A stretch of 64,000 nt of DNA from Takakia lepidozioides (Eukaryota > Plantae > Bryophyta): NCBI GenBank assembly GCA_030704615.1, contig CM060734.1, forward strand, positions 54,064,001 to 54,128,000, in the 5' to 3' direction. The position numbers were made by a program, and so were the translations under genes. Numbering within the stretch: the stretch's first letter is position 1; every line of letters begins with the position of its first letter. Shown piece after piece: positions 15,326-49,140 of this stretch. The notes beneath the pieces were generated by a model, which was not told where the DNA came from, ran no database searches, and worked only from the letters and a program-made list of their open reading frames with translations.

Positions 15326-15334
15326 ACAATCTAT

Positions 15335-21747: not shown

Positions 21748-21788
21748 GATGAGGCCAATCCCAAGGACGATCGCGTACTGAACTCTAA

Positions 21789-21800
21789 GCTCTAATACCA
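21789..21800 (-). other. Primer binding site, tRNA-iMet type (TGGTATTAGAGC)
   Basis: Lies 2 nt from the 3' end of the 5' LTR, one mismatch from TGGTATCAGAGC. Confidence 0.85.
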
Positions 21801-21802
21801 AG

Positions 21803-22528: not shown

Positions 22529-24897
22529 CCTACCCCTTCCTTTCCCCACACCACCAGCAACATCCTTTCCATTTGCCTTTCTGCCTTTACCCGGTGTATC
22601 CCGAGCGGGAGGCTCCTTCTCTGCAAGAGTCCTCAACTTCTCTCATGAATGTCGAGGTCGGCTGCTGCGGCGGTAGCTGCTATACGCTCATTCTCTCTCC
22701 TCAAAGACACCTCCTGAGCTGGGGTCTCTGAAGCAGGGCAATCCAAATACCAACCACAAGCAGAAAGATGGTCTGGGCCCCAGTCATGCAAGATCCCCGT
22801 AGTAAACATGGTCTGGTTGCCAGCAGGGACAAGCCAAAGGTCCACGAAATCAGGATGTTTGTCCAAGCAGTTCTCTGCCATGAGAACATACTTTATGTAC
22901 CTGCAGGAACAGAGACAACCTCATTATGCAATGCAAATATTGTCTCCCAGCTTTTCCACCCCATCACGAAGACCCCCTAAAAGAGTATGCGACACATTAC
23001 ACTCCACCACAAACTCATATGAGCCAGCCAAAAACAGGTTGGATGGAGGAGATTGTGTCTATGCAAAACAAAGAAGCACAGTCCATTTCGCACTTGTAAA
23101 GGCATCGTTTCCAGGCTTCCTCTCCTTTCTCTTGCTGGTCAAGTTCATTTGTTCGACTGATGCCAGCATCCTTGCTGAACTCTCTGAAGAAACAAGATTG
23201 TCACACTGTGGCTCTCCATTTCCTCATGTATGCTTGGAAGGAGACCTTCGGTTCTGTCATGGTGATCCCATAGTCAGCTAGCTGCGTATGTAGAACCGAC
23301 CGGGCCCTTTCCTCCAACTGCAGACCAATACAGAAGCAAGAATGAACACAAAAACAATCACAACCAATGTAACATGGAAAAAGAATGACAGAAAAAACGA
23401 AAAGAAAGTGACACAGCAAATGACATCATACCTGGCTCCAGTAAGTGGCCTTGTGAAGCCATGTGTCCAGCACATTGTCACTGACAGGAATGACACGCTG
23501 GGTCTTCTTCTCTTTCTCCAGCCTGGGGAACATGTGGGTATCCCTAACAGTAGGATCGGAGTTCCATATCTGTAGCTACTTCACCTTCTGTTCTGAAGAC
23601 ACAACGGTAGTAGACAACCTGTGTAACTTCTCCTGGGCCATCTCCGGCTTGCCTGGCTTGTTGTAATGGTTTTTCACCTCTTGAAGGAACTCTGGTCCGA
23701 AGGTTGGGTCAACAATTCTCAGTTGTTTCACAAAAGCACTCATAATAGTCTTTCTTGTGGCGGTCATCTCTTACTGGATGTGACTCTCAACACCCTTTGC
23801 TGTCCTTTTCTCCTCAGGGGTAGAGCTGTAGTATTCCAGTTTGCCACGCTCTCCTGCATCTGCAATGTCTTGCTGCAAGGGAATGCACGAGAGTTGCATC
23901 AACCCAAGGGCAAGGGAAACAAACAGAAACAAACATGTGGAAGCAGGAATATCGAAAGGCCAGATGATGGAAGATGTATCTCACCGCATACATATACTCC
24001 ATGAAAGCCTCACGGGTCAACGAGTACCACGTTTCTGATGTCTTGGAGCTTTCGCACTTCTTGTACGTCTCTACTGAAAGGATGGTCTTGAAGTTGGTCA
24101 AGGGCATCTGCCCGATCCTTTGTATCCTGTACAGTGTGTGAACCAGACTCGTTTTGACATGCGATGTCTCCGTCCCTCTGCAGAATGATGTGTGAAAGTC
24201 AGAATGAAATTCAAGGACCGTCAACAGAGGACTGGAACCAAAGAACCACAGAACCACAAGTGGAACATGTAGAATGAGAAACCAACCTATTCACATCATT
24301 CATTGCCGTCAGAAGACCCATCATGTTCCCGTCACAATCCAGCACCATCGATCAAACAGAGTAATGCCACTCTTCCTCATGTGAGTGCAGCCTCCCAATG
24401 ACAGCCATCCATGCAAGCAACTGGTGGTTGCCATCCCAAACGTGAAACATCTTCCCTGAGAATGCCTGGGTGGAAGGTTTCCTGGAGAGAAGAAGTTTGA
24501 AGGATTCGTTCACCTGTCTCCAAATGGGATCCCAGGAGTCCACGATTGACTCATCCACAAGGAGCTCATTGCCTCTGGAATCCTTTGTAGAAACGTAAAA
24601 GACTGCGGATCCATCCAAATACCCATGAACAAACTCGGCCTCCAGCTTCAAGATGTCCTTGATGAGGGGTGGACAAACAACGGGCATGGAAACCAACCTA
24701 CACATGGGAATCTTCAACCTCCCACCCGGGGCAAGCATACTTGCACCACAAGCTGAGAGTTTACCTTCTGACCCCCCAGCATCTCAGCAACTTTGCTTTC
24801 ATAGAACTCATCGTCCACATCAACAATGATCTCCTTCCCCTGCCCCGAAGGGATCTCATCCGCCACACTTTGCATCTTCTCCTACAGAATTGTTCAT
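22529..24897 (-). pseudogene. 5' part of a multi-exon ParB/Srx-like + methyltransferase gene (ParB-like N-terminal region)
   Basis: LKIPMCRLV..ILKLEAEFVHGY..KMFHVWDGNHQLLAW resembles the ParB/Sulfiredoxin DG(N)HR motif. Several GT..AG introns, stops and frameshifts. The frame ending KDVAGGVGKGRGR continues across the Gypsy TSD into 31278. Confidence 0.65.
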
Positions 24898-24919
24898 TCA
24901 AATTGATATAAGAGAGAGG

Positions 24920-25703
24920 CATGAAACGATGGTGTTTTGAGCATGGCGCATAGGCCCTATGTGGCCCAATTTCTCATCAGAAAACAAGCAGTGTCGGGGC
25001 CAAAAATAATGTGCATTGCCGCACAATGTTTTAGCTTCCAAATAGTGGTGTTTTGAACATGATATTTGGCCCTATGTGGCACATTTCCACAAAAAAAACA
25101 GGCAGAGAGGGGGCCAAAAAGGGGGCACAAATAGTGTGCGTTGCCGCACACTCTTCGTGCTACCAACTATGGGTGTTTTGAGCATGCATACTGGCCCTCT
25201 TTGGCCCAATTTCACATAGAAAAACAAGCAGAGAGGGGGCTCAAACAGTGTGCGTTGCCGCACACTGTTTGAGATTCCAATAAGGGTTCGTTTCAACCTG
25301 CCAGAGTGGCCCTAGGTGCCCGATTTTCACAACAAAAAAACAAGCAGACAAGGGGGCTCAAACAGTGTGCGTTGCCACTTTTTGAGCTTGTAATAAGGGG
25401 TGATTTTAACATGGCATAGTGGCCATGAGTGGCCGATTTTGAAATAAAAGAAAAGTCAGTGAAGGGGGCTCAAACAGTGTGCGTTGCCGTACACTATTTG
25501 AGCTTCCATTTCGGGGTGGATTCAACCTGCCAGACTGGCCCTCGGTGCACAATTTTCATGTACAAAAACAAGCAAATCAGGGGGCTCAAACAGTGTGCGT
25601 TGACGCACACTGTTTGGGCTGCCAGATAAGTGTGAATTGAACTTGACAGAGATGACCTTTGTGGTCAATTCTAAAATGAAAAAATAATGTCAAATGTGGG
25701 CTC
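24920..25703 (+). repeat. Tandem array 3 (~6-7 units), originally the continuation of array 2 before the inversion
   Basis: Same ~120-bp palindrome-cored unit. It ends at GGGCTCAAACA abutting gag. Confidence 0.9.
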
Positions 25704-28700
25704 AAACATGTCCAGGCTTTCAATGTGCTGTTGCTCGAAGTTGCGGACATGGCAGAACCAGAAATGGTCTTCAACTTTGTGGCGGGACTGGCCTCATGGG
25801 CCAGGCGGAAGTTGGAGGAGAAGCCACCCAAGACTTTGAACGAGGCAATTGAGAGGGCTGAATGTTTCTCGGATGTCCCTAGGGGTGAGAGACAAGGCCA
25901 TACGGAGCTGAACCACAAGAAGACCCGGCGGGAAGGTGACTCCTCCCGACCGGAAAAGAAGTGGGATAGGCCACGCGGCGATAATGGCACGTGGAAATCG
26001 AAGGGAGGGCCTTCACACGTCAAGGCGGCACCCGGTGCTTCGAAAGAAAAAGCGGGTGGAGCGGCTTATGGCGGACAGAAGGCGACCTTTGATGGAGTGT
26101 GTTTCAATTGCGGGGAGCCCGGGCACATGGCCAAGAAGTGCACGAAGCCCCGGCAATTGAACATGACTCGGGCGACCACGGAGCTGTCGGAAGATACCAT
26201 CAGTCGCTTGGTGGAAGCGGTGGTCGCCAGGACTTGCAAGGTAGGCAACTATTCTTGTGAGTTGTATCAGGAAACTGGCGCCCTGCGTAAAGGGAGTCAG
26301 TTATTGTTCGTGGATGGGATAATATCCGGAACTAATGTGTCGTTGTTGGTGGACACAGGAGCGTCGCACTCCTTCATGACACCGGCGGCGGCACAAAAGC
26401 TAGGACTCCTGACAAGTGACGTGGGGGCCTCTTTATGAGGTGCGTTCTGCCAAAGGAGAACCACAGTTGGCGACAAGGTTGGCGTTTAATGTTCCTCTTC
26501 AACTGGGGAGTTGGGAGGGACGTGAGAACTTCACCATCTGCGAGATCAATGGAGTAGATCTCATTTTGGGGATGACCTTTCTGAGTAAATCCGGAGCGGT
26601 CATAGATGGCCGCAAGAGAGTAGTCACGCTGCCATGTGGGAATGGTGGCGAGGTCTTACGAGTGTCGGAAACGCCCAAATCCGTGGGAGGGCGAATAAGC
26701 CTTCTGTCAGCAAGGGAGTGGGCCGTGGAAGAGGCACACGAACCCCAGTTTTTGCTTTACATTAGAGAAGTGAAGGGAGAAGGCGATGGGGAGCCGAACC
26801 CAGATTGGATCAAGGGGATTTTGGAGAAATACCAGGATGTGATGCCGGAGGATTTACCAAGCGGCTTGCCACCGCGAAGAGGAGTTGACCACAAGATTGA
26901 GGTGATACCGGGATTGGAACCGCCTGCCAAGGCGCCCTACCGGTTGAGCCACAGAGAGTTGGTCGAGCTGAAGACTCAGCTCAAGGATCTAATGTCAAAG
27001 GGGTACATCCGGCCGAGTAAGTCACCTTACGGAGCCCCGGTGCTATTCGCAGACAAGAAGGATGGGACGCTGCGGATGTGTGTCGATTACAGGGCTCTGA
27101 ATAAGGTGACTATCAAAAACCGGTACCCTTTGCCAAGGATCGACGACCTCTTCGATCGGTTGGCAGGAGCGAAGTATTTCAGCCGGATCGACTTGCGCTC
27201 CGGCTATCATCAAATTCGGGTGGCGGAAGGAGATGAGGAGAAGACCGCGTGCAGGACAAGGTATGGTTCATATGAGTTCTTGGTGATGCCTTTTGGGCTC
27301 ACCAATGCACCAGCGACCTTTAGCACGCTGATGAACAGCCTTTTTCAGGAGTGGTTGGATGACTTTGTGATCGTGTACATCGACGACATCTTGGTGTACT
27401 CGAAAACAAAGGAGGAGCACCTGGAGCACCTCAAAAGGGTGTTCCAAAAGTTGCGGGAAGGGAAGCTGTACGCCAAAGCTTCAAAGTGCGAATTCGGGGT
27501 CACGAAAGTAGAGTTCTTGGGGCATGTGATTACACAGGATGGGATCAAAATGGATGACAGAAAGGTGAGGGCGATCTTGGACTGGGAGCCTCCGACTTCG
27601 GTCCCGGGAGTGCGATCCTTCCTAGGACTCGCCTCCTATTACCGGAAGTATGTGAGAAATTTCGCCAAGATCGCGGGGCCGCTGTCGGACCTTCTGTGTA
27701 AATCCAAAGTCTGGGTATGAAACACATTTTGTGGCCAAGCTTTTGCTGAATTGAAGCAGCGGATGGCGGAAGCTCCAGTCTTGAAAATCCCGGAGTTCGA
27801 TCGTCCATTTGAGATTCATACAGATGCGTCGGACTTCGCGATTGGGGGTGTACTTATGCAAGATGGACGTCCAGTGGCTTACGAAAGTAAGAAACTGAAT
27901 GAAGTGGAGCGACGGTGGCCTACGCACGAAAAAGAGATGAAGGCGGTGGTGCATTGCCTTGAGCTTTGGCGCCACTATGTTGGTTCCAACCCAGTGAAGG
28001 TGTTCACGGACAATGTCACGGTGAAGTATTTTGCCACGCAGCCCAAGTTGTCCCCAAAACAACTTAGGTGGCAAGATACTTTGGCGGTGTTCGATGTGGA
28101 TATCCAGTACAAACCAGGACGAGACAACGTGGTGGCCGATGCTTTAAGTAGAAAACAGCAGCTCTTGTTGGTGTACAAGGGTGAGACGGCGCTCCAAAGG
28201 AAGATCCGAAAGGCTTGCCGGAAGGATGAGCTGACGAAGTCCGTGATGCAGGACTTGAGGATGGGGGTTAAATCGCAGTTCCACTTGCAAAATGGACTGC
28301 TCCGGTATAAGCAAAAACGTCTCTACGTGCCAAAGGGAGGGATCAGAGATAGCCTCTTGAGAGAATGCCATGATAGCCCGCTTGCGGGCCACGGCGGAGC
28401 CAAGCGCACTGCAGCACTCTTGAAGAAAGAGTATTTCTGGCCCAAACTGAGGGAGGAGGCAGAGGAGTATGTCAAGACATGCACCACATGCCAACAAAAC
28501 CGGAGCGAGTACAAAAAGCAAGCGGGGCTGTTACAACCCTTGCCGATTCCAGAGGGGACTTGGGAAAGCGTCTCGATGGATTTCATGACTGCTATGCCGC
28601 TGTCAAAAGGATTCGATGCAATCATGGTGGTGGTGGATAGGTTCAGTAAAATGGGCCATTTCATCCCCACCAAGGAGACGGCAACGGCGCAGGAGACAGG

Positions 28701-29643
28701 GCGACTTTACTTCGCCCACGTCTTAAAGCATCATGGAGTCCCGAAGGATATTGTCTCGGATCGCGATCCAAAGTTTACGAGTAAATTTTGGAGGACACTT
28801 TGGAAGAAGATGGGGACGAGGCTGAAGATGAGCACCGCCTTCCGACCTACAACCGACGGCCAAACAGAAAGGGTGAATTCCGTAGTGAAGCAGATCTTGC
28901 GGAATTACGTGTCGGCAGACCAAACAGACTGGGTGGAACACTTAGACGCGGCAGAGTTCTGTTATAATAACACAGAACACTCCGCAACGGGAGTTTCCCC
29001 TTTCGTATTGGTCTATGGAAAAGCACCTCTGGTGCCGACAAGTTGGGCCGCCTAGGACGTTGAGGAACCGGCAGTAGCGGCGGTACTGGAAGAACGCGAA
29101 CGTTTGTTGAAGCTCGCAAAGTACAACATTGCCAAAGCCAGGAAACGGTATGAAAGGCAGGCGAATCGGAAGCGGAGGGAAGTGAAGTTTGAGGCAGGCA
29201 CAGAGGTCTGGTTGAACATCAAGAATTTCCGACTACCTCCGGAAGTGAGTCCGAAGTTCGTACCTCCGTATGCGGGACCCTTTCGCATTCGAAAGGTTAT
29301 GAATGAGGATGTGTATGAATTGGAGCTGCCGGCAAACAGCAAGGTGCACCCAGTATTCTATGTCTCCCTTTTGAAGCCTTACTTCAAAGATGAAGCGCGT
29401 CCGAATCGGCATCAAGTGTTGCGTCCGCCACCTATGCTGTTAGATCATGAAAATGAACCTGAGTACGAGGTGGAGGCAATACTTAAGTCGAGGAGGTTCA
29501 AGAACCGAGAAACGGAGTATCTCGTCAAATGGAAGGGCTATCATCATGTGAAGGCATCTTGGGTGCGTGCCTCAGAAATGGGAAACGCATCCGAGGCGGT
29601 TGCAGCTTTCGAAGGGCGACCTCAAAAGCGGAAGAAACGTTGA
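25704..29643 (+). pseudogene. Ty3/Gypsy chromovirus gag(3')-pol: zinc knuckle, protease, RT, RNase H, integrase, chromodomain
   Basis: CFNCGEPGHMAKKC, LVDTGA, YIDD, TDASD, HHCC and DDE integrase, GPF, YEVEAIL..YLVKWKGY. Frameshift at ~26430 and stops at 27718 and 29053. Confidence 0.96.
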
Positions 29644-30547
29644 TGGGGACATCAACCTTGGAGCGTGGGGGAGGAAATGCATGCCTAGCCCGGCTTAGCT
29701 AGCTTAGGAATCCGATTACAAAAACTTGTATTGTACAAAAATTTGTTATAAAGGAAATGGGTTCCAAATGTTGTGCGTCCTATTTTGTTTGGAATGGTGA
29801 TGCATGGTATGGTTGGCTAGTGTGTAGAATGCATGCTAGCTTATAAAAGTGGGAGAGGTAAATGGGTTAACCGTGTGTTTGCGTAGTGCCGAAATCGGGT
29901 GACCCCCATCCAAGGGGCAAGGAAACTTGCGACTTCTTTGGGAGTTCACGTGCTAGTGCGCACCTGGCGCGTGCGCGTACTATAACTGCGCTACCGAGGG
30001 GGTTGCCTTGTAAAGCGGGCTAACGCGGAAGCTACGTGCTTCCGTTCACGTACTATAATCGTGTAGCCTCGGGACGAAGTTGTAGTGCGGCTTCGGCGTG
30101 TTCCCGTACCTCAGGCCAGCATTCCAAGGCGGACCCAATTGTAGTGATTGGGGCGCACGGTTGGTTCAAGGTTATCTTCCTAGTCAAAGAGGGTTCCAGG
30201 GAACCCTTGCTCAAGGTGATGCCAAAAGCGGCATCATGAGCGATCGCAAGCAATGTTGTTGCAGTAAGGCGATTCGATCCTCGGGGAGGATCGTTCCTTG
30301 GCCTTGAAGTAGGCCAAGAAGAGTGCACTGGGAGGAGCTGGAGAGGCTCCACCCTTGGCCGGGACTTGGAGGAAGTCGGCCGAACTAGCTAGTGGAGAGT
30401 AGAGTCAAGTGTGGGGTTTGGTTCTTTGCCATGGGACGCCATGGTGCGGAAACAAACTCCTTGATGTGGGACGCCACAGCTTGGATGTTCGTTTCTACAA
30501 AATGGACAAGTCGATGAGGACATCAACTCCCTGTTGGTAGGGGTGTG

Positions 30548-31272
30548 TGTCGCGACCCTTTGCCTTGAGGGCAGGGGGTCGGGACACATGAGGGGCTGCC
30601 CCTGTAGTGGGGGCATTGGCAGCGATAGGTATGGGGGCTGAAGCACCCTTGAGTGCCCAAGGCACTCAAGGAGGCGGAGGCGCTCACTAGGTGGAGCCCC
30701 GCACACCGGGTTGCGGTGGGGGTAGCTCCACAAGGGGTGGTGATAGCTTAGCGGGACTTAGTGGGGGTGGCATAGGACTCACCATGGGGGCGGAGACCTC
30801 GTGGTGGGAGTCGTGGGGAGTCGTGGGACTCATCACGGTCCATAGGGGCCGTGATGAGTGGGCCAAGACTCACCGCGACTCATCACCGGGAGTCGAGGGT
30901 TTTCGTGGTGGTTCGCCATAAAATGGCATGGCTGGTTATGAAACCCCCGCGGACAGCTACAGAAGTATATATAGGGAGTAGTAACCCCGAGAACGGTGCA
31001 AGCCCGTTGGTGACCAAAAACTAGTGAGTAAGCGAACGAGCCGGAAAGCGACCAAAGAGAGGGGAGCTGTTCCGGACTGCCATCTACCAAAGGGAATTCT
31101 CCTAGTCCCAAATAGGTGGAGGGTTTAGAGGGAAGCGAAGGGGGACCGTTATGTCCTGGTGAGCAGCCGAAGCTCCAAGTTGGCCCGGGCGGCCAGGTTG
31201 GGAGTCAGGCGCGCGCATCAAAGCGAGTAACTATGACTTGAAGGGGAGCTTACCGAAGTGAGGTGCGCGACA
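30548..31272 (+). repeat. 3' LTR of the chromoviral Gypsy element
   Basis: TG...CA termini, preceded by purine-rich GGTAGGGG, followed by TSD GTAGG (31273-31277). Confidence 0.95.
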
Positions 31273-31277
31273 GTAGG

Positions 31278-36144: not shown

Positions 36145-36700
36145 ATCATTGTGGCATAGCTTTCTAGGATGGCTTGTTAGGAAATGTGGTTAGATAGCGA
36201 TGTGGGTTGTGGCACGATGCTTAGGTATACGACATGCTCAAAATTTAAATGTGTTGTCGTGCGCATACATATCGCTACACAACTACATCGCTGTCCAAAC
36301 CACACCACACATATATGCACAATAAAGTAGTCTGCCACAATAGATAAACAAGCTAAACATGACACACACTCTCAACACAAGAAATATGAAATCCATCGCT
36401 ATCACTCTTTAAAATAGAAGTTGAGCCAGGGGCACCCCACGCTATGGGGACTCCACCCCACAACAACCTATACTCCCATCATAAGCACACTCAGATCTAA
36501 ACGCATGAAGGAGCTCGGTCGCGCAGGCTCAACTCGAGAGAGATGAGCTGCGCGACTGCCGCTCTCGTGAAGATAAGACGGTTTAGGTGTCAAACTAAAC
36601 TTGACACCTGATTTAACACTTGACCTAAATCCAAGTGTTAAATACAAATAACTAGCTTTATTCTAGTTGTTTTCACACTGTGCTTATTTAACTTGACAGC
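36145..36700. repeat. Patchwork of segments copied from 47361-48042 plus a copy of the 85-bp LTR-like unit
   Basis: 36145-36253 matches 47931-48042 (direct), 36254-36338 matches 36701-36785, 36343-36503 is the reverse complement of 47361-47522, and 36504-36699 matches 47698-47892. Confidence 0.85.
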
Positions 36701-37299
36701 TGTCGTGCGCATACATATCGCTACACAACTACATCGCTGTCCAAACCACACCACACATATATGCACAATAAAGTAGTCTGCCACAATCGCCCCCCTAGCT
36801 GGTGGATAGGTCCCTCTACCTCCAGATAGCTACAAGATGTAATAGCCACAACCGTATTGAGTCCTCTATCACTGTCCCTATTGCACTCAAACCCTATAGA
36901 CCAAGAGGCCGGGTACAAGAGTAGCCCCATTGTTAGTCGCCGTCTTGCAATCTGTGAACTTGAGCCAGGACCTCGTGTGTTTAAGGTCTCCTAGTAGCTG
37001 GGCCTTGCGTTTCTTGTTAGCCTTCCATGGTTGTATCCACTCCCACTATCCAATGCAATGTGGACATAACCAATCCCCATCCGGAACCATCTTCCACACA
37101 ACCACGTCCTCAGTTGAGCAGACTACTTGGTTCTACTATTAACTACTGTTAGCAGACTACAACAGTCTCCGTCTGTTTAACCAGTCTGCCGCGTAGTCTG
37201 TTGGCCGCTGAGCAGTCTGCCGGCTAGTCTGTTGCATGTTGAGAAGTCTGTCGCGTAGTCTGCTGGCCGCTCATCAGTCTGCTCGGCAGAGTGTGTGGC

Positions 37300-39958
37300 A
37301 TCAAACCTGCAGATACCACTGCCAAGTTTGGGTCTATCCTGCCATCGACATTCGGAAGGTGACATGGCGCACAATTACGCACATGGTCATTCCAAGTTAT
37401 GCCATCCTGACCCTCCAAGACCAAGACGCCTGAGGGCAAGACCTCTCGAACCCTCAAAATAACACGTCCTGCAGTCACATCCAAGGTCGTAGGAGCAGTT
37501 TGCTGCAGATAGACATAGTCACCAGGGTTGAATCTCCGAACCCCAGGACGATAGCCCCCACCACGTATGGTAGCATACCTCAACGTATCACGGTGTTGTG
37601 CAATGGCAAGGTTCTCGAAAGCCATGGGCATGACTCTCTTGAACAACTTTGCACGCTGCTCACATGCACGTGCCTACACGTCCGGATCGTCAAGGTTAAG
37701 AACTGTAGCAGCTTCTCTGCGAATGGATATAGGCAAATCCGGCTCTCGGCCAAAGAGAAGAAAATATGGTGAGAAGGAGGCAAGTGATGCTTGCTTGCTG
37801 AACCTGTAGCCCATGGCTAACCAGGGTAACTAAAGGTCCCAATCTCCTAGGTGTCCCTTCTGCAAGCCATACTTGCTTACTGTCTGAACAACTCTCTCTG
37901 CCAAGCCATCGGCCTCAGGATGATCCTGAGAAGTGGTGCGGTGGTCTATCAAGGCCTTGTCACACAAAGCCTGAAACTCCCCCAAGAACTCTCTCCCTTG
38001 GTCCGTGAGTACCTCAGCTGGAGCACCGAATCGGCTAAGCACACAATCCAAGAATGCATACGCAGCTCCCTCACTAGGAACCAATTCAATCCACTTGGAG
38101 AAGTGCTCCACCATCACCAACACGTACTTGTTGTGGCGCATGGTCAGTGGCAACGGCCCTGCGAAGTCAAGACTCCACCTGTAGCCCAATCCCATGATCG
38201 GAAGAGGGTGCAATTGTGGAGTAGGGGCGTTGAATGAAGCACGCACCCTGTCACACACCATGCACCTAGCCACAAATTGTTGCACCTCTGTGTGCATACC
38301 ACGCCACCAATATTGCCCCTGCAGTAGACTATGAGTGCGTCGCACCCCAAAATGCCCCAACTCCTCATGGGCATGCCGCACTAACCGTGCCCACTGTTTT
38401 GGGTGAGGCACAATCCTCACTCGACCATCCTCCCACACTCGGAGCAGGTGTGTCCCCTCCCACTTGAACCTCTTGGCTCGTTGTAGGATCCGATCTCTCT
38501 CCTTGGCAGTCACAGTGGCTGCAGTGTCTCCAGTGCGGAGGTAGTCCAACACAACTGAATCCTCATGTATATCTTTGGCGCCACCTTGCTCCTTGTTGGC
38601 CTCAGGGTCCTCAGACACTTGATCTACAGTCATCCCTGTTGCAGGTCCAACTTGGCCTTCCGCTGCCAAGATATACAGAAATGCAGATGCATGCCATCCG
38701 GGCACCATCTCCTCGTCCGTCTCACCATGCCACCGAGCTCCAATGTTATCCTGCTGGCTCGTGCATGGATTACGACTCAACCCATCTACATTGCGATTGA
38801 CCAAACCCGGTCGATGCACCACCTGAAAGTCATACTCTTGAAGGATGAGTGCCCACCGTGCAAGCTTCCCTGTAAGCTTGTCTGACTCCATCAACCACTT
38901 GAGTGGTTGGTGATCCGTGACAAGGGTGAAGAGATTGCCGTATAGATAGCACCTGAAGTGTGCCACGGCCCACACTGCAGCTAAGCATTCTCCCTCATAT
39001 GAGCTATACTTAGATTTTGCAGCATTGTTTGAGCGGCTAGCATAAGCCACTACGAACTCTCTTCCCTCATCATCCACCTGTCTGAGCACCGCTCTAAGCC
39101 CCAGCATGCTCCAATCTGTATGCAGCTGAAAAGGACGCCCCCTGATAGGTCGTCTCAAGATGGGCGCCGAGGTCAACCTCGCCTTGAGCTCTTGAAAAGC
39201 TTGTTCTTGCTCATCTTCCCACTGCCACTCCTGGTCCACCTTGGTCAGCTTGGTTAGAGCCTTTGCAATGGCACTAAATCCCTTAACGAACCGTCTGTAA
39301 TAGTTTGCTAACCCCATGAAAGCTCGAACTCGGCTCACATCCGTGGGGCGTGGAACCTGTGCAATGGACTCTACCTTAGTCTACTGTACCCCCAATCCTC
39401 CAGGATATATCATGTGACCCAGATACTCAATCTGGTTGTGGAAAAACTTGCACTTTCCCGGATGTAACTTCAATCCGTGCGCCCTCAAGCGCTCAAATAC
39501 CCCCTGAAGGTGTCTCTTATGCTCCTCCACCGTAGCACTAAAGATGATGATGTCATCTATGTAGCACCGAGCAAACTCCACCCCTGCTAGAATCCTGTCC
39601 ATGACTCTTTGAAACTCAGCGGGAGCGTTTTAAGCCCAAATGGTAAGAACCGCCACTGGTATAGGCAATCCATCCCGTGCTCATTGATCCCCCAGAATGC
39701 TGTCTTTCGCTTATCCGCCTCCTTGATCGGCAACTGGTGATATCCGGATCGTAAATCCAACATGCTAAAGACCTTGGAATGCCCAATGGCATCAAAGATC
39801 TCCTCTAGTGTTGGCATGGCATACCTATCGGACTTGGTCTGACGATTTACAGGCCGGTAGTCACCGCACATACGTCTCTCCGTCCAATTGCCATAGACAT
39901 CCTTCTTGGCTGGCATCACTGTGGCTGAAGCATACTCTCCACCAGAGAGCTCCACCAA
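37300..39958 (-). pseudogene. Gypsy RT-RNase H-integrase (frameshifted)
   Basis: [58 protein letters not shown]. Several frameshifts and stops. Confidence 0.95.
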
Positions 39959-40261
39959 ACTTGCCTCTCAGAGATCTTGAGTCCTCATCTGAATCAAAGA
40001 CCTCTCCATGTCACTGTATCTATAGGGTCTCCGAAAGATTGGCGTGTCAGTGGCCAACTCAATACGGATCTCTTGACCCTTCAGTGCTCCCAAGTCTTTC
40101 AAACTGAAGGCAAAGCAATTCCTGTAAGCCCTCAGGAACCGCCGTATACATCGTCTCTCTCCTCCGATGACAATGGGTCCAATGTCAGGCTCCCAATTGT
40201 CCTCCGTAACTGCAACCTTAAGTCCAGTGGGCTTAGAGGTAGAGGACGCGTCCCGTGGTTG

Positions 40262-43012
40262 CTATGCTGCAACCTCTTGAGCAGTACTCCCTTCCTGCTC
40301 AGTCAATGACAAAGCCTCATCCTGCCCCATCATCTCATCATTGAGAACCTCCTCATCCCGAGAAGAATCCCCAACCTCATCCATCACAGCTGCCTTGGCT
40401 GCCAACTCCCTCTGAACCTCAAGCACCTCCCACGTGTGCCATGGATGTCTACACCCCGTGGTCCTCACCGGCTCGCCCCCACTCGCTGCCTGTACTGTCT
40501 CGGTAGGCAGAGAGACCGTCAAGGGAAGTGCACTTCGCACTCTATGTTGCTCAGCCATAGCCAAGCTGATAATCCAGGTCAAGCAATTGAGATCCATTGC
40601 TTGCCCCAACACCTGACGACGTGATGCCTCAGAAAGAGAAGGCACCGCCGTGGTCCCAGTGGAAAACCCCATAGCCCGCTCTCGCTCGTCGGCATTAGGC
40701 TCCACTAACTGCTGCAACTGAGCATCCCACAGGAGGCCAGGTCCACCATCCCGAAAAGCATGGGATCCTGGGAAGCTGAGTAGTGTAGGTAATGCTGCTC
40801 GTGGTTGACCCACTATGTTGACCACTGCCAAAGGCGAATGGTCATCGTGTCTCACACGTTGAGACTGCCTCCCTGTGTCTAAAATGCCATCCACGGTGAG
40901 GTGTGTTGGCCGCTGCACCCCATCAAATGCACGCTTGAGCAGTGCGGGTGGCATCAAGTTAGTCCACCAAAGTCGTGGATGATGAGCCCGTGACCCCACT
41001 GCAGCTGCATCCAGCAACGCTGCTGACCCAAGCCACGACCGGACTTGATGCACACTGGCCATCACCCTAGCCCGAGAATCACCCATCGGTGGCACATTCT
41101 CCAAGATGTATGCTGGAGATACAGCTTGATGAAGCTGCAAGTGGCGCAAAACCCGCACCATCTCCCAAAACAGACCCGTCCTTGAGTCTCGCAATCCATT
41201 GCCATGCCCGGCTGATGAATGCCCTTGGCAGGGCCAACCTGCCACTACCAGATTAATGGAGCCAACCTGCTCCAAATCCGGCGCCCCCAGCAACGAAATG
41301 TCTGCTGGCAAGGCTTGTTGGTATCCACGAACTACAGACACTGGCAACAAAGCATGGTACTGCTGTACTAACTGAGCAACATGGCGCAGTGAGACGCGTC
41401 GTGCAGTCTCATCCCTCTCCACATACATGTAACGCCTTACCCGCACACCTGCCTGTAGCACAGCAGCCAATCCGGTGCTAATCCCGCCAAACAAGTCCAG
41501 AAGGCAAATGCCTTCATCCGGATACTGCCACACAATAGGTGTGGTATCCAATGGTGACAACTGAGGTGGTCCTGGTGCAATACCCACACTCTCCTCCTCT
41601 CCTGACAGTACAAAAGCCTCTACCCAGGCTTGTTGCACCCGTCGATCAGCAACCTGCTGCAAATCCTTGCTCGTACCCAATGGAGTGTGAGCAACCATGG
41701 CAGGCAACTCCGCCATACCATGCATGTCATCCTGCTCTGCTGGAGGTGGCACATCCTCTGCATGGGCATTGCCTTCCAGCAACTCTCCAGGCCAACTAAC
41801 TGCAGCTGTAAAGGCGGCTAGTGTTGGCATCTTGCCCCGTTGGGCAACCGCAATACCCCCAATGAATGTCACAGGGAGCTGTGCACGACGACCATCCCCT
41901 GACTGCCATCCAGGCCTGTAGAATGCTGACTCCTCCCAAAAGTCCAGGGTGAAGCCCATGGGGTATAACACTGCCCCACCAATGAGGACATCGTAAGAGA
42001 CCGCGTCTGTCACAATGGCCTTGGCTCGCATTATTGAGCCATCGATAGGATGATCCGGCTGCAGTCTAATGGCCAACTGATGCCGTGTCATGCCCCGAGC
42101 CTGCTCTGATCCTTCCAGAGATGTCTGTATCTGGAAAAGACAAGACTCCATATCCGCCTCCATGAGGCCCAAACCTGCAATAGCAGCTCTGCCCAACATC
42201 AGTGGCTGAGCTCCCGAGTCCAACAAGACCCGCAGTGGCCGGTACTTCTTGCCTGCCGGTCCACTCAAAGAGAAAATGTCATCCTGGTTGTCTAACAAGA
42301 CAACTCCAGGTGTCACCATGGCGCGCTCAAAGGCTGGCCTAGCTGGCAGCTCCGTCAACCTGGCAGCTATAGCTTGCCAGGGCGCAGCCGTGGCAGTCTT
42401 GACCCTCAAATCCGAGGATCCCTCTGCCACTACACCTTTCACTAACTCCGCAGAAGATGAAGTGACCTCCCCACTCTCACAGAGTGTTGCTGTTAGTCTG
42501 AACACTGCAGCTGGTCTTACCCCCGGCGTCGCAATCATGGTTGCCGAGAACAGTGGGGCTTGACACACAGAGGTGGCTGCCCCCAATAACACACCGGCTG
42601 CACTAGCTTTGGTAGCAGGTGTCAGTGCTGCACGTGTAGCTCTCCCCAATGGCATAGTAACCTCCGCCTCGGTAACAGTTGGGCGAGAACTAGGTGCCAT
42701 GGATGGCGTCGACACTGTCTCCGCCAATGTAAATGACTGAGGAAGCCTCGCCTGACGGCTTGCCTCCCCACGCTGTGGATCCAATTCCACCTGTGCACCT
42801 CGTGGCTCAGGAACTCGTGATGCTCCTCGAGTCACGGCTGCAGCAGACTCCACCTGCTCTAGTGGTAGTGCTGCTCCGCACATGAATCCCATGCCTCCCA
42901 TATCTCCTCCCTCAGGAATAGGAGGTGGACCATCCCGCCTGGGAGCCGGTACCGCCTGAGCTGTAGCCATGGTAGTGAGCCTTTGCTCTAGCTGCTGAAG
43001 CCGGTTGGCCAT
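40262..43012 (-). CDS. Retrotransposon polyprotein segment: aspartic protease + DNMT3-like C5 methyltransferase (~40550-41510)
   Basis: Protease LLDSGA and DVLIG. MTase motifs: I LLDLFGGISTG, II YVERD, IV AGWPCQG, VI YILENV, VIII RAHHPRLWWTN, IX ERERAMGF, X RRQVLGQAM. All lie in one open 916-aa frame. Confidence 0.93.
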   Translation of the reverse strand: MANRLQQLEQRLTTMATAQAVPAPRRDGPPPIPEGGDMGGMGFMCGAALPLEQVESAAAVTRGASRVPEPRGAQVELDPQRGEASRQARLPQSFTLAETVSTPSMAPSSRPTVTEAEVTMPLGRATRAALTPATKASAAGVLLGAATSVCQAPLFSATMIATPGVRPAAVFRLTATLCESGEVTSSSAELVKGVVAEGSSDLRVKTATAAPWQAIAARLTELPARPAFERAMVTPGVVLLDNQDDIFSLSGPAGKKYRPLRVLLDSGAQPLMLGRAAIAGLGLMEADMESCLFQIQTSLEGSEQARGMTRHQLAIRLQPDHPIDGSIMRAKAIVTDAVSYDVLIGGAVLYPMGFTLDFWEESAFYRPGWQSGDGRRAQLPVTFIGGIAVAQRGKMPTLAAFTAAVSWPGELLEGNAHAEDVPPPAEQDDMHGMAELPAMVAHTPLGTSKDLQQVADRRVQQAWVEAFVLSGEEESVGIAPGPPQLSPLDTTPIVWQYPDEGICLLDLFGGISTGLAAVLQAGVRVRRYMYVERDETARRVSLRHVAQLVQQYHALLPVSVVRGYQQALPADISLLGAPDLEQVGSINLVVAGWPCQGHSSAGHGNGLRDSRTGLFWEMVRVLRHLQLHQAVSPAYILENVPPMGDSRARVMASVHQVRSWLGSAALLDAAAVGSRAHHPRLWWTNLMPPALLKRAFDGVQRPTHLTVDGILDTGRQSQRVRHDDHSPLAVVNIVGQPRAALPTLLSFPGSHAFRDGGPGLLWDAQLQQLVEPNADERERAMGFSTGTTAVPSLSEASRRQVLGQAMDLNCLTWIISLAMAEQHRVRSALPLTVSLPTETVQAASGGEPVRTTGCRHPWHTWEVLEVQRELAAKAAVMDEVGDSSRDEEVLNDEMMGQDEALSLTEQEGSTAQEVAA

Positions 43013-43075
43013 GCCTTGGTCAACACCCTGACCTCCGCGTCCTTGGCCATGTTGAGCTTGCCCTTGGCCTGCACC

Positions 43076-44462
43076 TCATGCCCGACCACCTCGTCCTCTC
43101 TGGGCTGGTCCACCTCGCCCCCGGCCACCATTGTTCCCTTGGAACTGGCCTGGGCGCAACTTAGGATGCAAGTCATAACACTGGGCATCTCCATGCCCAT
43201 ACTTGCCACAATGCCCACACTGCAACTGTGCAGGTTGTATTTGTGCCGGCCTTCTGCCACTCTCTGGGCAATCTCTTTTGACATGGGGTCCTCCACATGT
43301 CCAACATATCACCCCTGGTTGCTGTTGGCCTGCAAAAGATGCCACGGGCCTCTGCACCTGAGGTCCCCTGTAAGCTCCATGGAACTTGGGTTGGGAAACC
43401 TTGCCCCCCTGACCACGTTGTTGGGCAGTCCCTTGTGCCTGTGGGCTGGCAGCTACGCCTCGTGCACGCATGTCCTTACCAAATCCAATGGTAACAACTC
43501 GCTCCTCCACCATGTTGAGCTCAATCCGCTCAGCCAGCAGAAACACATCTGCTAATGTGGGTTGGGCTGCTTGTAACAGAGTTGCATCTCGCACCCTTCT
43601 CTTGAGCTCCTTGTCCAGAATTCCATACCAAAACTGGATTGCCTGAGCTTCAATAACCCCTTGGGTCACACTTATCAAGCGCCTCATACGAATGTACGCC
43701 TCTCGCAGGCTCTCACTGGGTTTGTGCTGGAAGTCTTGCAAACTTCGCAGCTTCTCTGTCCGTACACCTTGGTAGTTCCTCCGCAACTCCTGGAAGAACT
43801 CCACCACCGGGTTGAATCTAGGCACATGTGTTGTAGTCGTGGTAGGAGGAGTAGTAGCACCTTTTGAACTGGTACCACCTGCAGAAGTACCGGCACTACT
43901 TGCTCCACTACTAGTGCTGGCACTGGGAGATATTGGTACTGATGCAGCTACTGGTCGCGTCGTGCCTCGAGTAATGGAGACGTAGTCAGGTGACCAATAC
44001 ATCCTCCACTCCTCAATTTCTGCTTCATGTCCTCGCCTGAACTCGTGGTAATCGTCCATAGGCGGGCCTTCCAAATGCTGGAACAGTCCCTTCCACGCCA
44101 TGAATGGGGTGAATAGCTGTGGATTGCGCATCTGCTGCAAATCACACCAGCTGTCAAACTCCTGGATAAAGTCATCCAACTCGATTGTGCCCACAGCTCC
44201 AGAGTATCTACGAGGCCCCTTGGTAGCTCCATACATCTCCTTCCATGTCGTCCCACAACAATGGCGAATGAAACTGCACACCTGTTGATGAAGCCTCCGA
44301 GTCTGTGTCTGACTCTACAGTAGTTGAGGGTGGCGGTGAAGGTGGTCTGAACCGAATACCTCGTCTTGTGAACCCACTCTCACTGTTACTGCCTGTAGCC
44401 GTACTCCCCTCAAAACCCTTGGGTAACTCCGTGATGACACTCACAATGTGCACCTCCTCCAT
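43076..44462 (-). pseudogene. Gypsy gag with two zinc knuckles (frameshifted)
   Basis: LDDFIQEFDSWC..LQDFQHKPSESLREAY, CWTCGGPHVKRDC and CGHCGKYGHGDAQC. Confidence 0.85.
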
Positions 44463-44987
44463 GTGACACTATAATGCTCTAGTATTAATCTAATAGTGAC
44501 ACGGGTGGGCACCTGTTGCAGTCTAAGGGTCATATCCCAATGGCTCAGGGCACCTGCACCTGCATCCACCGCAAGAACTCCTATGGTTGGCTGGTCATCA
44601 ACCCAGCCTCACCATAGAAGAAACACTAGTGGTCTTGCTGGTCATCACTCCAGCCTCACCACCGACATCATACTCTAGGATTGACCGGTGATCAAATCCG
44701 ACCTAATCCCTATGAAAGCAAGCGCCCACACAAAACCAACATGGCGCACAGTCAAGCATGCAGGTGTTGGGGGGGGGGGGGATCCAAACACAAGAAATCA
44801 AAACATCAACACCCCCACACCAAAATCCAGCTGCAATGCTGATCCTGCAGAATATCCCAGCCCAAAACCCCGGACTGACTGGCCTCCACCAAGAGAGGCT
44901 TTGGCAACTACAAGTATAAGGTAATGAAAATAGTACAGAGATGGAGGGGAAGAATAGAAGCCCGACCAAGCAAGATCTAATCCTGAT

Positions 44988-45737
44988 CTATGCTATCAAC
45001 TGCCAGACTTCTCTCAAAGTGCCTCGCTCTGCATGATGGTAAGGTGTAGGAGGTATATCTATGTCCAGAAACCTGCCACTAACCTTGTCCCAAGCTACAG
45101 TAGCTCGCTCTAACCAACCCTCCTCCTCTTTCTGCCAGGTAGAGACAAAGCAACACTCTGCTATCTCCCGCTCACTGAACACTAAAGAAAACAAAGGTAG
45201 GGTCTGATAGTCTCTCAACTCGAAAGCTTTGAGACGGTTGCGGGTGTCCTCATTGCGAATGACTGCATCTCCTTCAAACAGAACAAACTTGTCCTTGCTA
45301 ATGAACCCCTGCTCGTGGTTGCCTTGTGCAGAGCGTGTCCGGCTGCAACGCTGTCTGATTGCACAAACTTGTGTAGCTCCTGCTCCTCTACTCCAGTACA
45401 CCACGGCCTTGTGGCTGAACACCTTGGTACCCGGGGCTGTCTTTGGCTGTGTTCCAAGCTTAGCTTTCACCCACTTTGGTATTTCACCTACAGCTGCAAA
45501 ACTGCTGGCTCCAACAGAGTTCTGACTGTCCAAGGCGATATTGAGGCCCTCAACGCCAACTACAGCAGTTTGTTGTCCACTGCTAATGCCTGACTCCCAG
45601 TATGCAATCAACTCGTCCAACTGTTCTCCACTCAAATCAGTCTGAGTTCCTTGGGAAACATAAATCTTGTCCCCTTGGGTGCACAGGCTAAGAGAAGAGA
45701 CCTGCCCTTCAATTACGTCCTCATTTCCCCCAGCCAT
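44988..45737 (-). CDS. Accessory ORF upstream of gag, unknown function
   Basis: 249-aa ATG-started open frame inside the element, on the same strand as gag-pol. Confidence 0.45.
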   Translation of the reverse strand: MAGGNEDVIEGQVSSLSLCTQGDKIYVSQGTQTDLSGEQLDELIAYWESGISSGQQTAVVGVEGLNIALDSQNSVGASSFAAVGEIPKWVKAKLGTQPKTAPGTKVFSHKAVVYWSRGAGATQVCAIRQRCSRTRSAQGNHEQGFISKDKFVLFEGDAVIRNEDTRNRLKAFELRDYQTLPLFSLVFSEREIAECCFVSTWQKEEEGWLERATVAWDKVSGRFLDIDIPPTPYHHAERGTLREVWQLIA

Positions 45738-47360
45738 ACAAGGAGTACATCCCCAGATTTATCTCTCATGTAGACCAGAACAGGTTCTAGAAACAGGATT
45801 GCGGATCTTTCATGGCACACTCACACTCTAAAAATTCCATAGATTTCTAGCAGAGTCCCAAAAACAAAAACCAGATGGATAGATTTCCCCTTTCTGCAGC
45901 TATCCCCTCAAAAACTGAGTCAAACGGAGCTCATTTGACAAAGATATGACCAACCAGGCTCTTTAAACATTTAAATTAGATCAAAAAGGCCATTTTTTTT
46001 TTTTTAACACCAAAACATTTTTGCCATTACAACCTGTTCCCAGGTTACAAGCGGGTGTAGGTCAGCCGAGTCTTGTGGTAAGGTGAAGAGGATGCTCGGT
46101 GCATGAAGAGCTGGGTCCGATCAGCTGGCTAAGATTTGCGTTACAGATGAGATATAAACCTCTTGAGTAGCTCATGATGGTGGAGTTGGGTCTGACATTG
46201 ACTCGTTATGATTCATCTTCTGGCCATGGCTGGTCCCGATTTGACATGCGCAGTACATCTCCAGTATCATATTCTTGTCTTTTCGAGTCCTGGCAACCTC
46301 CCGGCTCAGCAGGTTCTTGCAAGTGCGTCAAAAGTCGGGTTTCCTCCAATGCGTGTGCTCATTATCTTGCGCAGGTTGATGATGGGTCTCGTGCACCGGT
46401 CAAGCATGTCCCTCCCTATGCTTCATTCTTTCTCTTTTCGCAGGTTACAACTATATCTCCCTTTAATCCTCTCGCACGGTTGGGCAGAGAGTTGAGGCAG
46501 CTTCTTCTTCAAGAAATGTTATCTCAATCACAATTTGGGTCGTTGGACAAAGTATCCGAGTTGGCTTGTACATCTTTGAAGCCTTCCTCCTCTTCACAGG
46601 CCGCTTCGAGTGCTCTCTGTTTGCAGCACCTTCTTCCTATCTCTGAATCTCTCCCTCAGTCTAAAGAAACAGGATGCCCACAAGTAACCTATCGCATGCG
46701 ACTTCTGCTTAAAGCAAGATGGGTTGCATTCCTCCTGTTTGCTGGTGTCGTGGCCACTTTCATGTGGAAGAGGGTTCCCTGTGCCCTGTCAAATCCTACC
46801 ACCTTCTATCAAACCGACACCCGAAGTAGAAAGCAATCAAGTAGATTGGTTCCCACATTGCCATCCGCATATTTTGTGCATGGCGATTCGGGTGAGGCCA
46901 GACATTTCCTTGCTGAGCGAGGAAAAATAAGGGCGGAGAACTGCTCATGTCAAAAGGTCAAAGCCAAAGAGGTTGAAACATTGTGCGAAGGGGGACTGCA
47001 GCTGGATGCTCTGGAACCCATCGCCAGCACTCTTTGCAAGGAGTCCATCCGTCACCATCCTCAAGAAGATCAACCTGGGCCACTCGAGAGTATTGAGAGT
47101 TCTTGAGGTAAATAGAGCTACCATACCTGGTAGCCAGGACATTGAAGCTACTATGATCGTTTAAAAAAGTGGCTTGACACAAACCACGGCGTTTCTGCTG
47201 CCCTCTCCCACTTCAGCGCAGCATTCAGCGTCCAGAGAGTGAAGTCCCTCTTTCCATAAAGGTAGACCTCCACGGTAAAGAGGATGAAATGCCCGCCACT
47301 TTCTATCAGCTTTCTGTCTTCGCATATGACTCCTATCCCAAAGTGCAGGCCTGTCGTGTG

Positions 47361-49140
47361 GCGTTTAGATCTGAGTGTGCTTATGATGGGAGTGTAGGTT
47401 GTTGTGGGGTGGAGTCCCCATAGCGTGGGGTGCCCCTGGCTCGACTTCTATTTTAAAGAGTGATAGCGATGGATTTCATATTTCTTGTGTTGAGAGTGTG
47501 TGTCATGTTTAGCTTGTTTATCACTCGAGAGAGATGAGCGTTATCTAGTGTGCTGGTGCTAAGCTAGATACAATGTTTGTTTTAGCATTATTATAATATA
47601 TATCTTGGGGCGGGAGTCCATCTGGCCCTGCTGTTTCCATGGGCTGTGCGCGCAGATTCATCTCTGCTCGTGAGTTTGAAAACCAAGAGGTCTGGATATG
47701 AAGGAGCTCGGTCGCGCAGGCTCAACTCGAGAGAGATGAGCTGCGCGACTGCCGTTCTCGTGAAGATAAGACGGTTCAGGTGTCAAACTAAACTTGACAC
47801 CTGATTTAACACTTGACCTAAATCCAAGTGTTAAATACAAATAACTAGCTTTATTCTAGTTGTTTTCACACTTAGCTTATTTAACTTGACAGTGTTTTAT
47901 AATTATGAGTTCCTATTTTTGTGATACTTATATCATTGTGGCATAGCTTTCTAGGATGGCATGTTAGGAAGTGTGGTTAGATGGCGATGTGGGTTGTGGC
48001 ACGATGCTTAGGTATATGACAAGCTCAAAATTTAAATGTGTTTTCAATTATGAGTTCATATTTTTGTGATACTTAGATTGTCTGAAATTTTGTTGTAAAC
48101 TGAAAATAAGGTCTGTAAAATTGAAAATTGAAGTCTGTAAAACTGAAATCAATGGTAGTAAAAAAATATCTGAGATGTCTTACGGACTCGTTGAAAATCT
48201 TGCTGTACACTGAAAACCAAAGTTTGTAAAACTGAAATCTGAAGTATGAAACAGTAACATCAAACAAAATAGCCTATAGATCTAGAAAGTCAAATGAAAT
48301 TAGAGCAAATCCAGTAAGTCCTAGCATATACGAAATGATTGCAAAGGCTGAAGCAAGATAGATGTGAAAATAGTCATATAGACTAATATGCTGTAAGTTC
48401 TAGGTCATCTACACATAGTAGAGGGAGAGCAGCAACCTGTTCAAGCACTTTCAACTTCTTTCTCCTACCAACGTTCTCCCTCCTGAAATCCGTGGAAGAC
48501 CCTGGAATCCCCATAATGGCCTCAGCGGGACACTTCGCAATCTGCAAGGGTGGCTCGTAACTGCAATTACGACATAACATATTAGATCATATTTTGCAAG
48601 AATGATGATTTGGGGAAATGGGAACATTCAGAACATGCTAACAATGAAGACACTTACATAGAAGTTGGACTTCCTCACTCCAGCGATTGTACGTGAATCT
48701 GAATGCCATCCATGTCATCGTTCAACCAGTCAGTGTCGGCAGGTATGTTAGTGACAATGTCAAGTTATTTTACCACTAGTGTGAAACTAGCTAGGAAATA
48801 GCTAGCTTTTACATATTGACATTTGGGATTGGCCCAAGTGTCAATCCAGGGGTCAAGGCAGATTTAGGCCCTGGAGTGGTTATCTTCACGGCAAGCGCGG
48901 GAGGCTCATCTTTCTCGAGTTGAGCCTCACCACGCCTAGCTATGGCGCCGTAGTGTGGATTCCCCATGGCGTGGGGTGCACTTGGCTTGACTTGTATTTG
49001 AGTGATGAGTTTATATATGCATGAGTTTATGCTTCAGCTTTGTGAGCTCGCATGAGCTTGTGCTTGTATTCTTCTTCTTTATCACTCGAGAAAGATGAGC
49101 TCGTATCTGTGAGTGCCAGATACGAGTTAGTTGTAGCACT
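47361..49140. repeat. Unclassified repeat with multiple short hairpins and a recurring CTCGAGA(G/A)AGATGAGC motif
   Basis: 47400-47570 resembles 48950-49130. Hairpins include GGTGTCAA-ACTAAAC-TTGACACC and TTTAACACTTG..CAAGTGTTAAA. Confidence 0.5.

Follow-up and report, generated by a model that had tools for sequence, protein, structure and literature searches.

The bryophyte Takakia lepidozioides carries an abundant family of Ty3/Gypsy retrotransposons that encode a DNMT3-type C5 cytosine methyltransferase (DNMT) as the last domain of the Gag-protease (PR) frame, ahead of a stop codon that is likely leaky. One member lies in a 64,000-nucleotide stretch of contig CM060734.1 (assembly GCA_030704615.1, positions 54,064,001 to 54,128,000; hereafter the window, whose own numbering is used throughout). 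It occupies 36255-47891, far more than the 40262-43012 that an earlier sequence-only reading had assigned to it. On balance, we favour an account in which this arrangement allows near-capsid-level packaging of the enzyme, which would then likely methylate CG sites in the element's own cDNA.

A DNMT3-type domain shares the Gag-protease frame

A stop-free frame of 937 codons (40262-43075, minus strand) contains the protease motif LLDSGA at residue 284, followed by C5 methyltransferase motifs I, IV (GWPCQ), VI (ENV), VIII and IX, with motif X located by alignment. This agrees with the sequence-only reading, which had placed a DNMT3-like domain in frame with the protease, between protease and reverse transcriptase (RT), and had suggested a Pfam search. 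That search matched PF00145 with an E value of 1.5e-10 and 41.5 bits, against a cut-off of 22. All 26 matches of a single-sequence PDB search were DNMT3A, DNMT3B or DNMT3C, and a 19-sequence profile found DNMT3A at 1.5e-26, DRM at 2.5e-12, M.HhaI at 2.9e-8 and DNMT2 at 5e-7. The AlphaFold model (pLDDT 89.9) had DNMT3A as its best Foldseek match (E 1.4e-18), with a DNMT3 chain in every row shown. With motifs I to X in canonical order and nearest matches in both sequence and predicted fold to DNMT3, the domain is DNMT3-type as judged by homology and modelling. Our DNMT trees, built with FastTree, took in element-borne domains only.

Motif VIII reads HHPR in the window copy, as had been noticed before. 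Work on DNMT3A reportedly shows that the Arg at the position of this His (codon CAT) is important for catalysis. We regard the change as copy-specific decay because, of 19 aligned sequences, the remaining 18 all keep Arg. The same His appears again in P0004 and P0016, a recurrence that would fit CpG deamination. Open relatives keep the catalytic PC, ENV and RxR motifs, in the last of which the window copy has His for the first Arg, and many distant representatives (P0290-P0433) have ENT or ENA in motif VI.

The sequence-only reading had also described the flanking gag and RT as frameshifted. Instead, gag, protease, DNMT and the start of RT all share one frame: gag is cut by a single nonsense codon at 43076-43078, a natural Marchantia ORF1 (first open reading frame, ORF) aligns over 44236-40370 in one tblastn high-scoring pair (HSP) with one internal stop, and the 5' part of RT continues in frame beyond a TAG (40262-40264), with the first frameshift inside RT near 39,610-39,630. 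Together with the second nonsense codon at 39968, three stops in the downstream HSP and a broken PHD finger, these lesions indicate from the reading frames that the window copy is dead.

A conserved stop with a readthrough context closes the DNMT frame

We surveyed the end of the DNMT frame in 81 loci and the window, of which 39 rows (38 loci and the window) had both DNMT and RT anchors. A stop followed by [CT]ARYY lies 334-396 nt ahead of the RT motif in 29 of these 39 rows, three of them out of frame with that motif through later indels. Nine of the ten rows lacking this context form a separate second clade, and the tenth, L045, lost the stop. Within the stop-carrying clade, 29 of 30 assessable members have TAG, or in some relatives TAA, followed by CARYYA or CAACCC. 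Many rows are near-duplicates and represent about six independent lineages, whose contexts are TAG CAACCA (window; L014), TAG CAGTTA (L025/26), TAG CAATCA (L039; L059) and TAR CAACCC (Sphagnum-like); synonymous sites between these lineages are near saturation (proportion of synonymous differences, pS, 0.50-0.88). CCA, TTA, TCA and CCC all occur as the second codon past the stop, and because it varies in this way the constraint is on bases and not on residues. Among the stop triplets of all frames, a stop followed by CARYYA is unique in the window element (1 of 207), L026 (1 of 252) and L039 (1 of 236), and L014 has two among 267, one at the conserved site. L026 is otherwise fully open, with 1369 codons, TAG CAGTTA and a further 1047 codons in the same frame. 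In the second (Sphagnum-metagenome-like) clade, L055 has CAG at a position where L061, L074 and L081 carry a TAG or TAA stop, a difference that decay could explain.

Protein records agree with this picture. All 38 hand-picked ORF1-type proteins, including annotated Marchantia proteins, end 104-213 residues past motif IX without an RT motif; ORF1 ends in named genomes are known from such proteins, and the DNA context of the stop from the loci and the window. The stop-carrying members form one group in the DNMT tree (SH-like support 0.91; 36 hand-picked rows).

The window clade has UAG, CAR YYA directly after it and an open frame beyond, the same hexamer and layout as the tobacco mosaic virus (TMV) type, or type I, signal UAG-CAR-YYA, which is an established readthrough signal functional in plants (PMC2754532). 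A TMV-type signal here, recognised from sequence alone, would set the ratio of Gag-PR-DNMT to RT-RNase H (RH)-integrase (INT). Because a conserved stop with such a context closes the DNMT frame, the DNMT of the stop-carrying clade likely travels at Gag level, with RT-RH-INT-PHD made by readthrough. This modifies the earlier proposal that the enzyme is packaged and processed with Pol, since in this clade the DNMT ends the Gag-protease ORF before the stop and is not part of a continuous Pol. We consider it highly probable that translation mostly terminates behind the DNMT, with a smaller share of ribosomes carrying on through RT-RH-INT-PHD. The bulk of the product would then be Gag-PR-DNMT, and RT-RH-INT-PHD would be made in small amounts. 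Readthrough of a stop codon has reportedly also been found for the env of SIRE1.

The stop could alternatively be a true end. RT-RH-INT would then come from a transcript of its own, made by splicing or by internal initiation, and the DNMT would simply be the last ORF1 domain; we judge this improbable. ORF2 has no conserved Met: in seven copies the first Met is at codon 3, 5, 14, 48, 85, 117 and 117, with FRRP at 70-77, so three of seven copies offer a Met 3-14 codons past the stop and three have their first Met inside RT. The Candida element Tca2 is said to have an internal promoter. It also has a stop between gag and pol whose bypass is unclear (PMC2194720), and some plant Gypsy groups have two ORFs (PMC6317226). 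Against an independent ORF2, the reading frame carries on unchanged across the stop, and conservation holds for the bases of CARYYA but not for the codons nearby. We rejected RNA editing and a variant genetic code as ways past the stop because open elements have just this one stop, always at the same position.

The family is abundant, widespread and under purifying selection

In genome run X1, 98,507 contigs fall on 32-51 kb of the window. Summed contig depth, a sign of abundance and not a copy number, is 0.93-1.06 million in the DNMT bins and 0.94-1.20 million over RT, RH and INT, as against hundreds to thousands in the low-copy flanks; the window family is thus abundant, with its DNMT covered as deeply as its other domains. 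Named homologues occur in Marchantia polymorpha (up to 73% identity), M. paleacea, Calypogeia fissa (74%), Riccia and Sphagnum, and further ones in Closterium and Scenedesmus. At E <= 1e-30 against the DNMT profile we obtained 546 clusters (50% identity). Several open ORF1s of 1278-1281 aa encoding Gag-PR-DNMT, with all four checked motifs intact, are found in Marchantia.

Among the best 150 clusters, the commonest multi-domain order is RT-RH-DNMT-INT-PHD (32), and 44 are DNMT-only fragments. In L054, L056, L063, L068, L069, L071 and L075 and in the Scenedesmus sequence P0301, a single uninterrupted ORF has the DNMT between RNase H and integrase, and because of this second architecture we conclude that the domain has moved within the family. 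The same three main groups of loci emerge from the RT-RH tree and from the DNMT tree; support for the deep branches of the RT tree is weak (53-60), and no order of domain moves is claimed.

Pairwise ratios of nonsynonymous to synonymous change (dN/dS; Nei-Gojobori, saturated pairs disregarded) point to purifying selection on the DNMT between lineages: 0.09-0.20 in six between-lineage pairs with finite dS, among them L025/L026 with 0.13 at an unsaturated dS of 0.26. Between lineages, the protease gave 0.12-0.32, much like the DNMT, and RT, RH and INT gave 0.03-0.07, lower than the DNMT. Two young dead copies, L003 and L005, gave a DNMT dN/dS of 0.65.

These data bear on a reading in which the DNMT was captured only once or rides along neutrally, with a stop that arose by ordinary decay. 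The several nonsense codons, frameshift and motif VIII change of the window copy, and the near-neutral drift of L003 and L005, are what such a history would leave. The selection and conservation results refute it: the clusters are numerous, the RT and DNMT trees share their main groups, Marchantia ORF1s are open, and the stop is the sole break in L026. We therefore give it next to no credence. The sequence-only reading had itself named one-off capture, or neutral decay in all copies, as outcomes that would undo its proposal; the depth of the DNMT, its relatives across bryophytes and green algae and the between-lineage selection speak against both.

Some matches stand apart. A scan of viral contigs returned one partial locus. 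P0073, a family member labelled as a protein of a Candidatus Obscuribacterales metagenome-assembled genome, probably derives from plant or algal DNA that ended up in that bin. L058 (2-4918) has a DNMT-INT-PHD frame with a weak match to a D12-class adenine methyltransferase near its C-terminus (E 0.006, below cut-off). In run X9, record 28, from a different organism, a low-depth contig carries 262 differences over ~4.8 kb of the element (36781-41817) and would come either from a close relative of the host or from horizontal transfer.

Split terminal repeats and a palindromic junction

By self-comparison the whole element is arranged A-coding-polypurine tract-B-A-B, with split repeats in place of two full long terminal repeats (LTRs). 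Four distinct elements with both ends in their contig (L043, L050, L076 and L078), chosen by self-comparison of loci of at least 6 kb, have the same layout and 4-bp duplications, which with the window element makes 4-bp duplications in 5 of 5. This layout and the target duplication overturned an alternative in which the repeats at 36.3-36.7 kb and 47.4-47.9 kb were unrelated dispersed repeats. The domain order gag-PR-RT-RH-INT is that of Ty3/Gypsy, supported by Pfam and comparison with relatives. The integrase is of the DDE type (rve and H2C2 matches), and window frames and intact relatives gave no Pfam match to a tyrosine recombinase, with rve in its place. No TGG-type primer-binding site was seen by eye after A1 in L043, L050, L076 or L078, no tRNA search having been run. 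A PHD finger (PF00628) is found in the intact relatives L026 and L039 and in Marchantia P0049, and a weak Asp_protease_2 match (E 2e-4, below cut-off) covers the protease of L026. Since only 6 of 441 positions differ between its paired repeats, the window element probably inserted recently.

The joint of B and A forms a near-palindrome, YGACA-NN-TGTCA, in the window, L002, L026, L039, L043, L055/57, L063, L075, L076/80 and L078/79, and thus in all three RT groups; it is decayed in L050. This B/A junction resembles an integrase substrate, by analogy with foamy virus, in which a conserved palindromic joint of the two ends could likewise be opened by integrase (PMC1180852). Foamy virus integrase cleaves LTR-LTR junctions, whereas in this family the B/A joint, with its 2-bp spacer, sits permanently inside the integrated element, and the likeness in cleavage is one of analogy only. 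Somewhat tentatively, and on that analogy, we suggest that both ends may be regenerated from the internal junction, with integrase cutting or processing there before insertion. None of nine Sphagnum-like loci having a 5' A shows A-B-A at the 5' end.

Target units on either side of the insertion also deserve mention. At 36150-36234 and 47937-48021 (plus strand), 85-bp units of the target tandem repeat resemble the element's B in 55/88 and 56/89 columns, with similarity scores of 65 and 64 against shuffle maxima of 42 and 51. They may be left over from a related subfamily, or such units may be a preferred target.

What the enzyme may do

In the account we favour, the protease would free the DNMT in the particle, where the enzyme would meet double-stranded cDNA and methylate CG sites, with the putative benefit that insertions look like methylated host DNA; towards this step we incline only slightly. 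Related DNMT3s borne by DIRS elements methylate CG in yeast, and in Klebsormidium nitens gene bodies are CG-methylated and silent transposons carry CHG and CHH methylation (PMC5890265). CG-methylated cDNA may resemble host gene-body DNA or prime its own silencing. Synonymous CG loss is stronger in the window element (46/284) than in a chromovirus of the same window (76/169; p 5e-11), and synonymous CG is depleted in each of the nine open relatives analysed, though to a small degree in L039 and L063.

A number of observations count against this account. The PPR gene of the host in the same window is equally CG-depleted (30/181), and therefore CG loss does not show self-methylation; furthermore, the control is a single chromovirus, and host enzymes methylate transposons anyway. 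Other clades fuse the DNMT to RT, as in Closterium, or set it between RNase H and integrase, which implies that Gag-level dosage is not needed family-wide. Motif IV reads GWECQ in place of GWPCQ in 72 of 150 distant representatives (within P0290-P0433, including Closterium). In the Sphagnum-like subfamily CAACCC keeps five of the six motif positions, often after TAA, and single-B copies are common (L005, L012, L017, L045). Finally, no methylation was seen in yeast with the Gypsy DNMT of Klebsormidium, an outcome that the authors of that work describe as inconclusive (PMC5890265).

That inactivity on yeast DNA would also fit a functional domain with a target other than particle cDNA, namely host chromatin, the insertion site, or element RNA that is methylated or bound. 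Purifying selection attests function and not substrate, the integrase carries a PHD chromatin-reader finger, and a Gag-level product would be plentiful outside particles too. Nonetheless, a DNA-acting DNMT3 suits the fold and motifs far better than the tRNA enzyme DNMT2 does (1.5e-26 versus 5e-7), the domain lies within the polyprotein region in every architecture seen, and open elements show strong synonymous CG loss. We consider a target of this other kind rather unlikely.

Relation to known elements

Gypsy elements bearing a DNMT are known as a kind from KnitGypsy-Dnmt3 of K. nitens (de Mendoza et al. 2018, PMC5890265), and the likeness to them drawn by the sequence-only reading is confirmed in domain set and split repeats. 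KnitGypsy-Dnmt3 has the same Gypsy domains, a DNMT3-type domain with unrearranged motifs, the same DIRS-like A-coding-B-A-B repeats and purifying selection on the DNMT. In contrast, its DNMT is described in the RT-bearing Pol ORF, whereas here a conserved stop divides DNMT from RT; for this reason the window family is a variant of that kind and not a member, compared by description, with no Klebsormidium-named sequence among our named matches or the 30 clusters looked up. K. nitens has 33 DNMT genes in total, whereas the window host, a land plant, carries very many copies, and the available text on KnitGypsy-Dnmt3 does not mention a PHD finger, palindromic junction or target duplications, all features of the window family.

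Two other retroelement groups carry C5 methyltransferases. SymbioDIRS-Dnmt3 shares split repeats and differs by its tyrosine recombinase (PMC5890265), and the DNMTs of EpiLTRs are sister to DNMT4, in elements that also carry a DAM domain and a chromodomain (bioRxiv 10.64898/2026.05.21.726589). What marks the window family off from both is its DDE integrase, together with 4-bp duplications and a PHD finger. Phygy and Selgy are likewise non-chromovirus Gypsy elements of seed-free plants, with 4- or 5-bp target duplications; they are set apart by description, the word 'methyltransferase' being absent from the available text (PMC6317226). None of the five window-family duplications matches NCGN, and GTGT could be a decayed NCGN.

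In a literature search that left most subscription journals outside (including available parts of PMC10952607, PMC6317226, PMC12885004, PMC9477723 and PMC6453930), we found no report of a land-plant DNMT-bearing Gypsy element, of its leaky stop or of the B/A junction. Later papers, in the parts available, say 'streptophytes' and do not name land plants; their trees or supplements may include bryophytes.

Features of the element and its neighbourhood

The coordinates of the element are collected in Table 1. The segment at 47361-47697 would represent an inversion within the 5' A, and the low-copy stretch at 45950-47360 is probably a later insertion into the 5' region. The 256-codon frame at 44988-45758 has no Pfam match, and none by tblastn in the loci of at least 6 kb. 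In the window copy, a low-complexity repeat-like stretch at 37093-37300 stands where the middle of the PHD finger should be.

Table 1. Coordinates of the retrotransposon and its parts in the window.
Feature	Position	Strand	Basis
Whole Ty3/Gypsy element, 11,637 bp, TG...CA ends	36255-47891	-	Self-comparison and termini
Target-site duplication GTGT, 4 bp	47892-47895	.	Flanks match each other; target is a short tandem repeat
Target-site duplication GTGT, partner copy	36251-36254	.	Read at element ends
5' repeat A1, first part, starts TGTCA	47698-47891	-	190/194 identical to 36505-36698
Inverted segment with remainder of A1 (47361-47522)	47361-47697	+	160/162 identical to reverse complement of 36343-36504
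Low-copy stretch inside 5' region, limits approximate	45950-47360	.	Summed contig depth ~700-4,700 versus 3e5-1e6 in element
256-codon frame upstream of gag, in high-copy region	44988-45758	-	Open frame list
gag with CCHC knuckles, frame shared with protease-DNMT	43079-44236	-	Marchantia ORF1 tblastn HSP
Nonsense codon TGA, this copy alone	43076-43078	-	Natural ORF1s of relatives open through here
Aspartic protease, LLDSGA at 42209-42226, limits approximate	41846-42310	-	Motif
DNMT3-type C5 cytosine methyltransferase domain	40532-41521	-	Pfam, PDB, profile, AlphaFold/Foldseek
DNMT catalytic Cys; ENV; motif VIII His (codon CAT)	41228-41230; 41093-41101; 40979-40981	-	
Conserved stop TAG then CAACCA (CARYYA), likely readthrough signal, ORF1/ORF2	40256-40264	-	Context comparison
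ORF2 start and 5' part of RT, in frame with ORF1; frameshift near 39,610-39,630	39608-40261	-	
Nonsense codon inside 5' part of RT	39968-39970	-	
3' RT, RNase H, integrase (H2C2 zinc finger, rve core), C-terminal region	37302-39629	-	Pfam, tblastn; three stops in HSP
C-terminal PHD finger remnant, disrupted, limits approximate	37048-37130	-	Translation
Polypurine tract-like G run directly before B1	36788-36797	-	Same in Sphagnum-like group and L026
Repeat B1, 85 bp, ends CGACA	36701-36785	-	85/85 identical to B2
B/A junction CGACA-GC-TGTCA, near-palindrome joining both terminal sequences over 2-bp spacer	36694-36705	-	
Repeat A2	36342-36698	-	Self-comparison
Repeat B2, element 3' end	36255-36339	-	Self-comparison, termini

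Elsewhere in the window, an open 983-codon PLS-type PPR gene (9866-12817, plus strand) with E, E+ and DYW domains and six 303-bp repeat units likely encodes an organellar RNA-editing factor. It is 51-71% identical to gymnosperm, moss, liverwort, lycophyte and some angiosperm proteins alike. The chromovirus-type Gypsy element spans 21130-31277, with gag-PR, RT, RH-INT, SH3 and chromodomain at 25680-29643 (plus strand). A piece of its gag lies on the opposite strand (21130-21813), and its 645-bp repeats (21798-22442 and 30633-31277) are inverted (99%) and not direct, a layout that is probably due to inversion or nested insertion. A satellite of ~116-118 bp forms three blocks (15282-17563, 19849-21123 and 24931-25708), the middle one in opposite orientation.

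Significance

DNMT-bearing ORFs can push up the number of DNMTs counted in bryophyte annotations, and LTR finders that require two full LTRs would likely miss the window family. The likely leaky stop predicts enzyme dosage, and the palindrome at the junction points to a way of integrating that the literature searched, in its available text, does not describe for Gypsy elements.

More speculatively, and with considerable doubt, the family may belong to an ancient green-lineage Gypsy superfamily extending from Scenedesmus through Closterium to liverworts and mosses. Such elements would replicate without a tRNA primer, by way of an intermediate that their DDE integrase would open at the built-in palindromic end-to-end junction. 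In the land-plant clade, a viral-type leaky stop would yield DNMT3 at capsid level, and copies would be CG-methylated before integration at PHD-selected chromatin. If this is true, land-plant genomes such as that of Marchantia contain several open but hidden genes for de novo methyltransferases, which appear in annotations as hypothetical proteins.

Since 2018 it has been a question why a transposon would encode the very enzyme that silences transposons, and the sole plant-lineage enzyme tested was inactive in yeast. Because Marchantia is genetically tractable and has several open Gag-PR-DNMT frames with intact motifs, the question is directly testable in a land plant.

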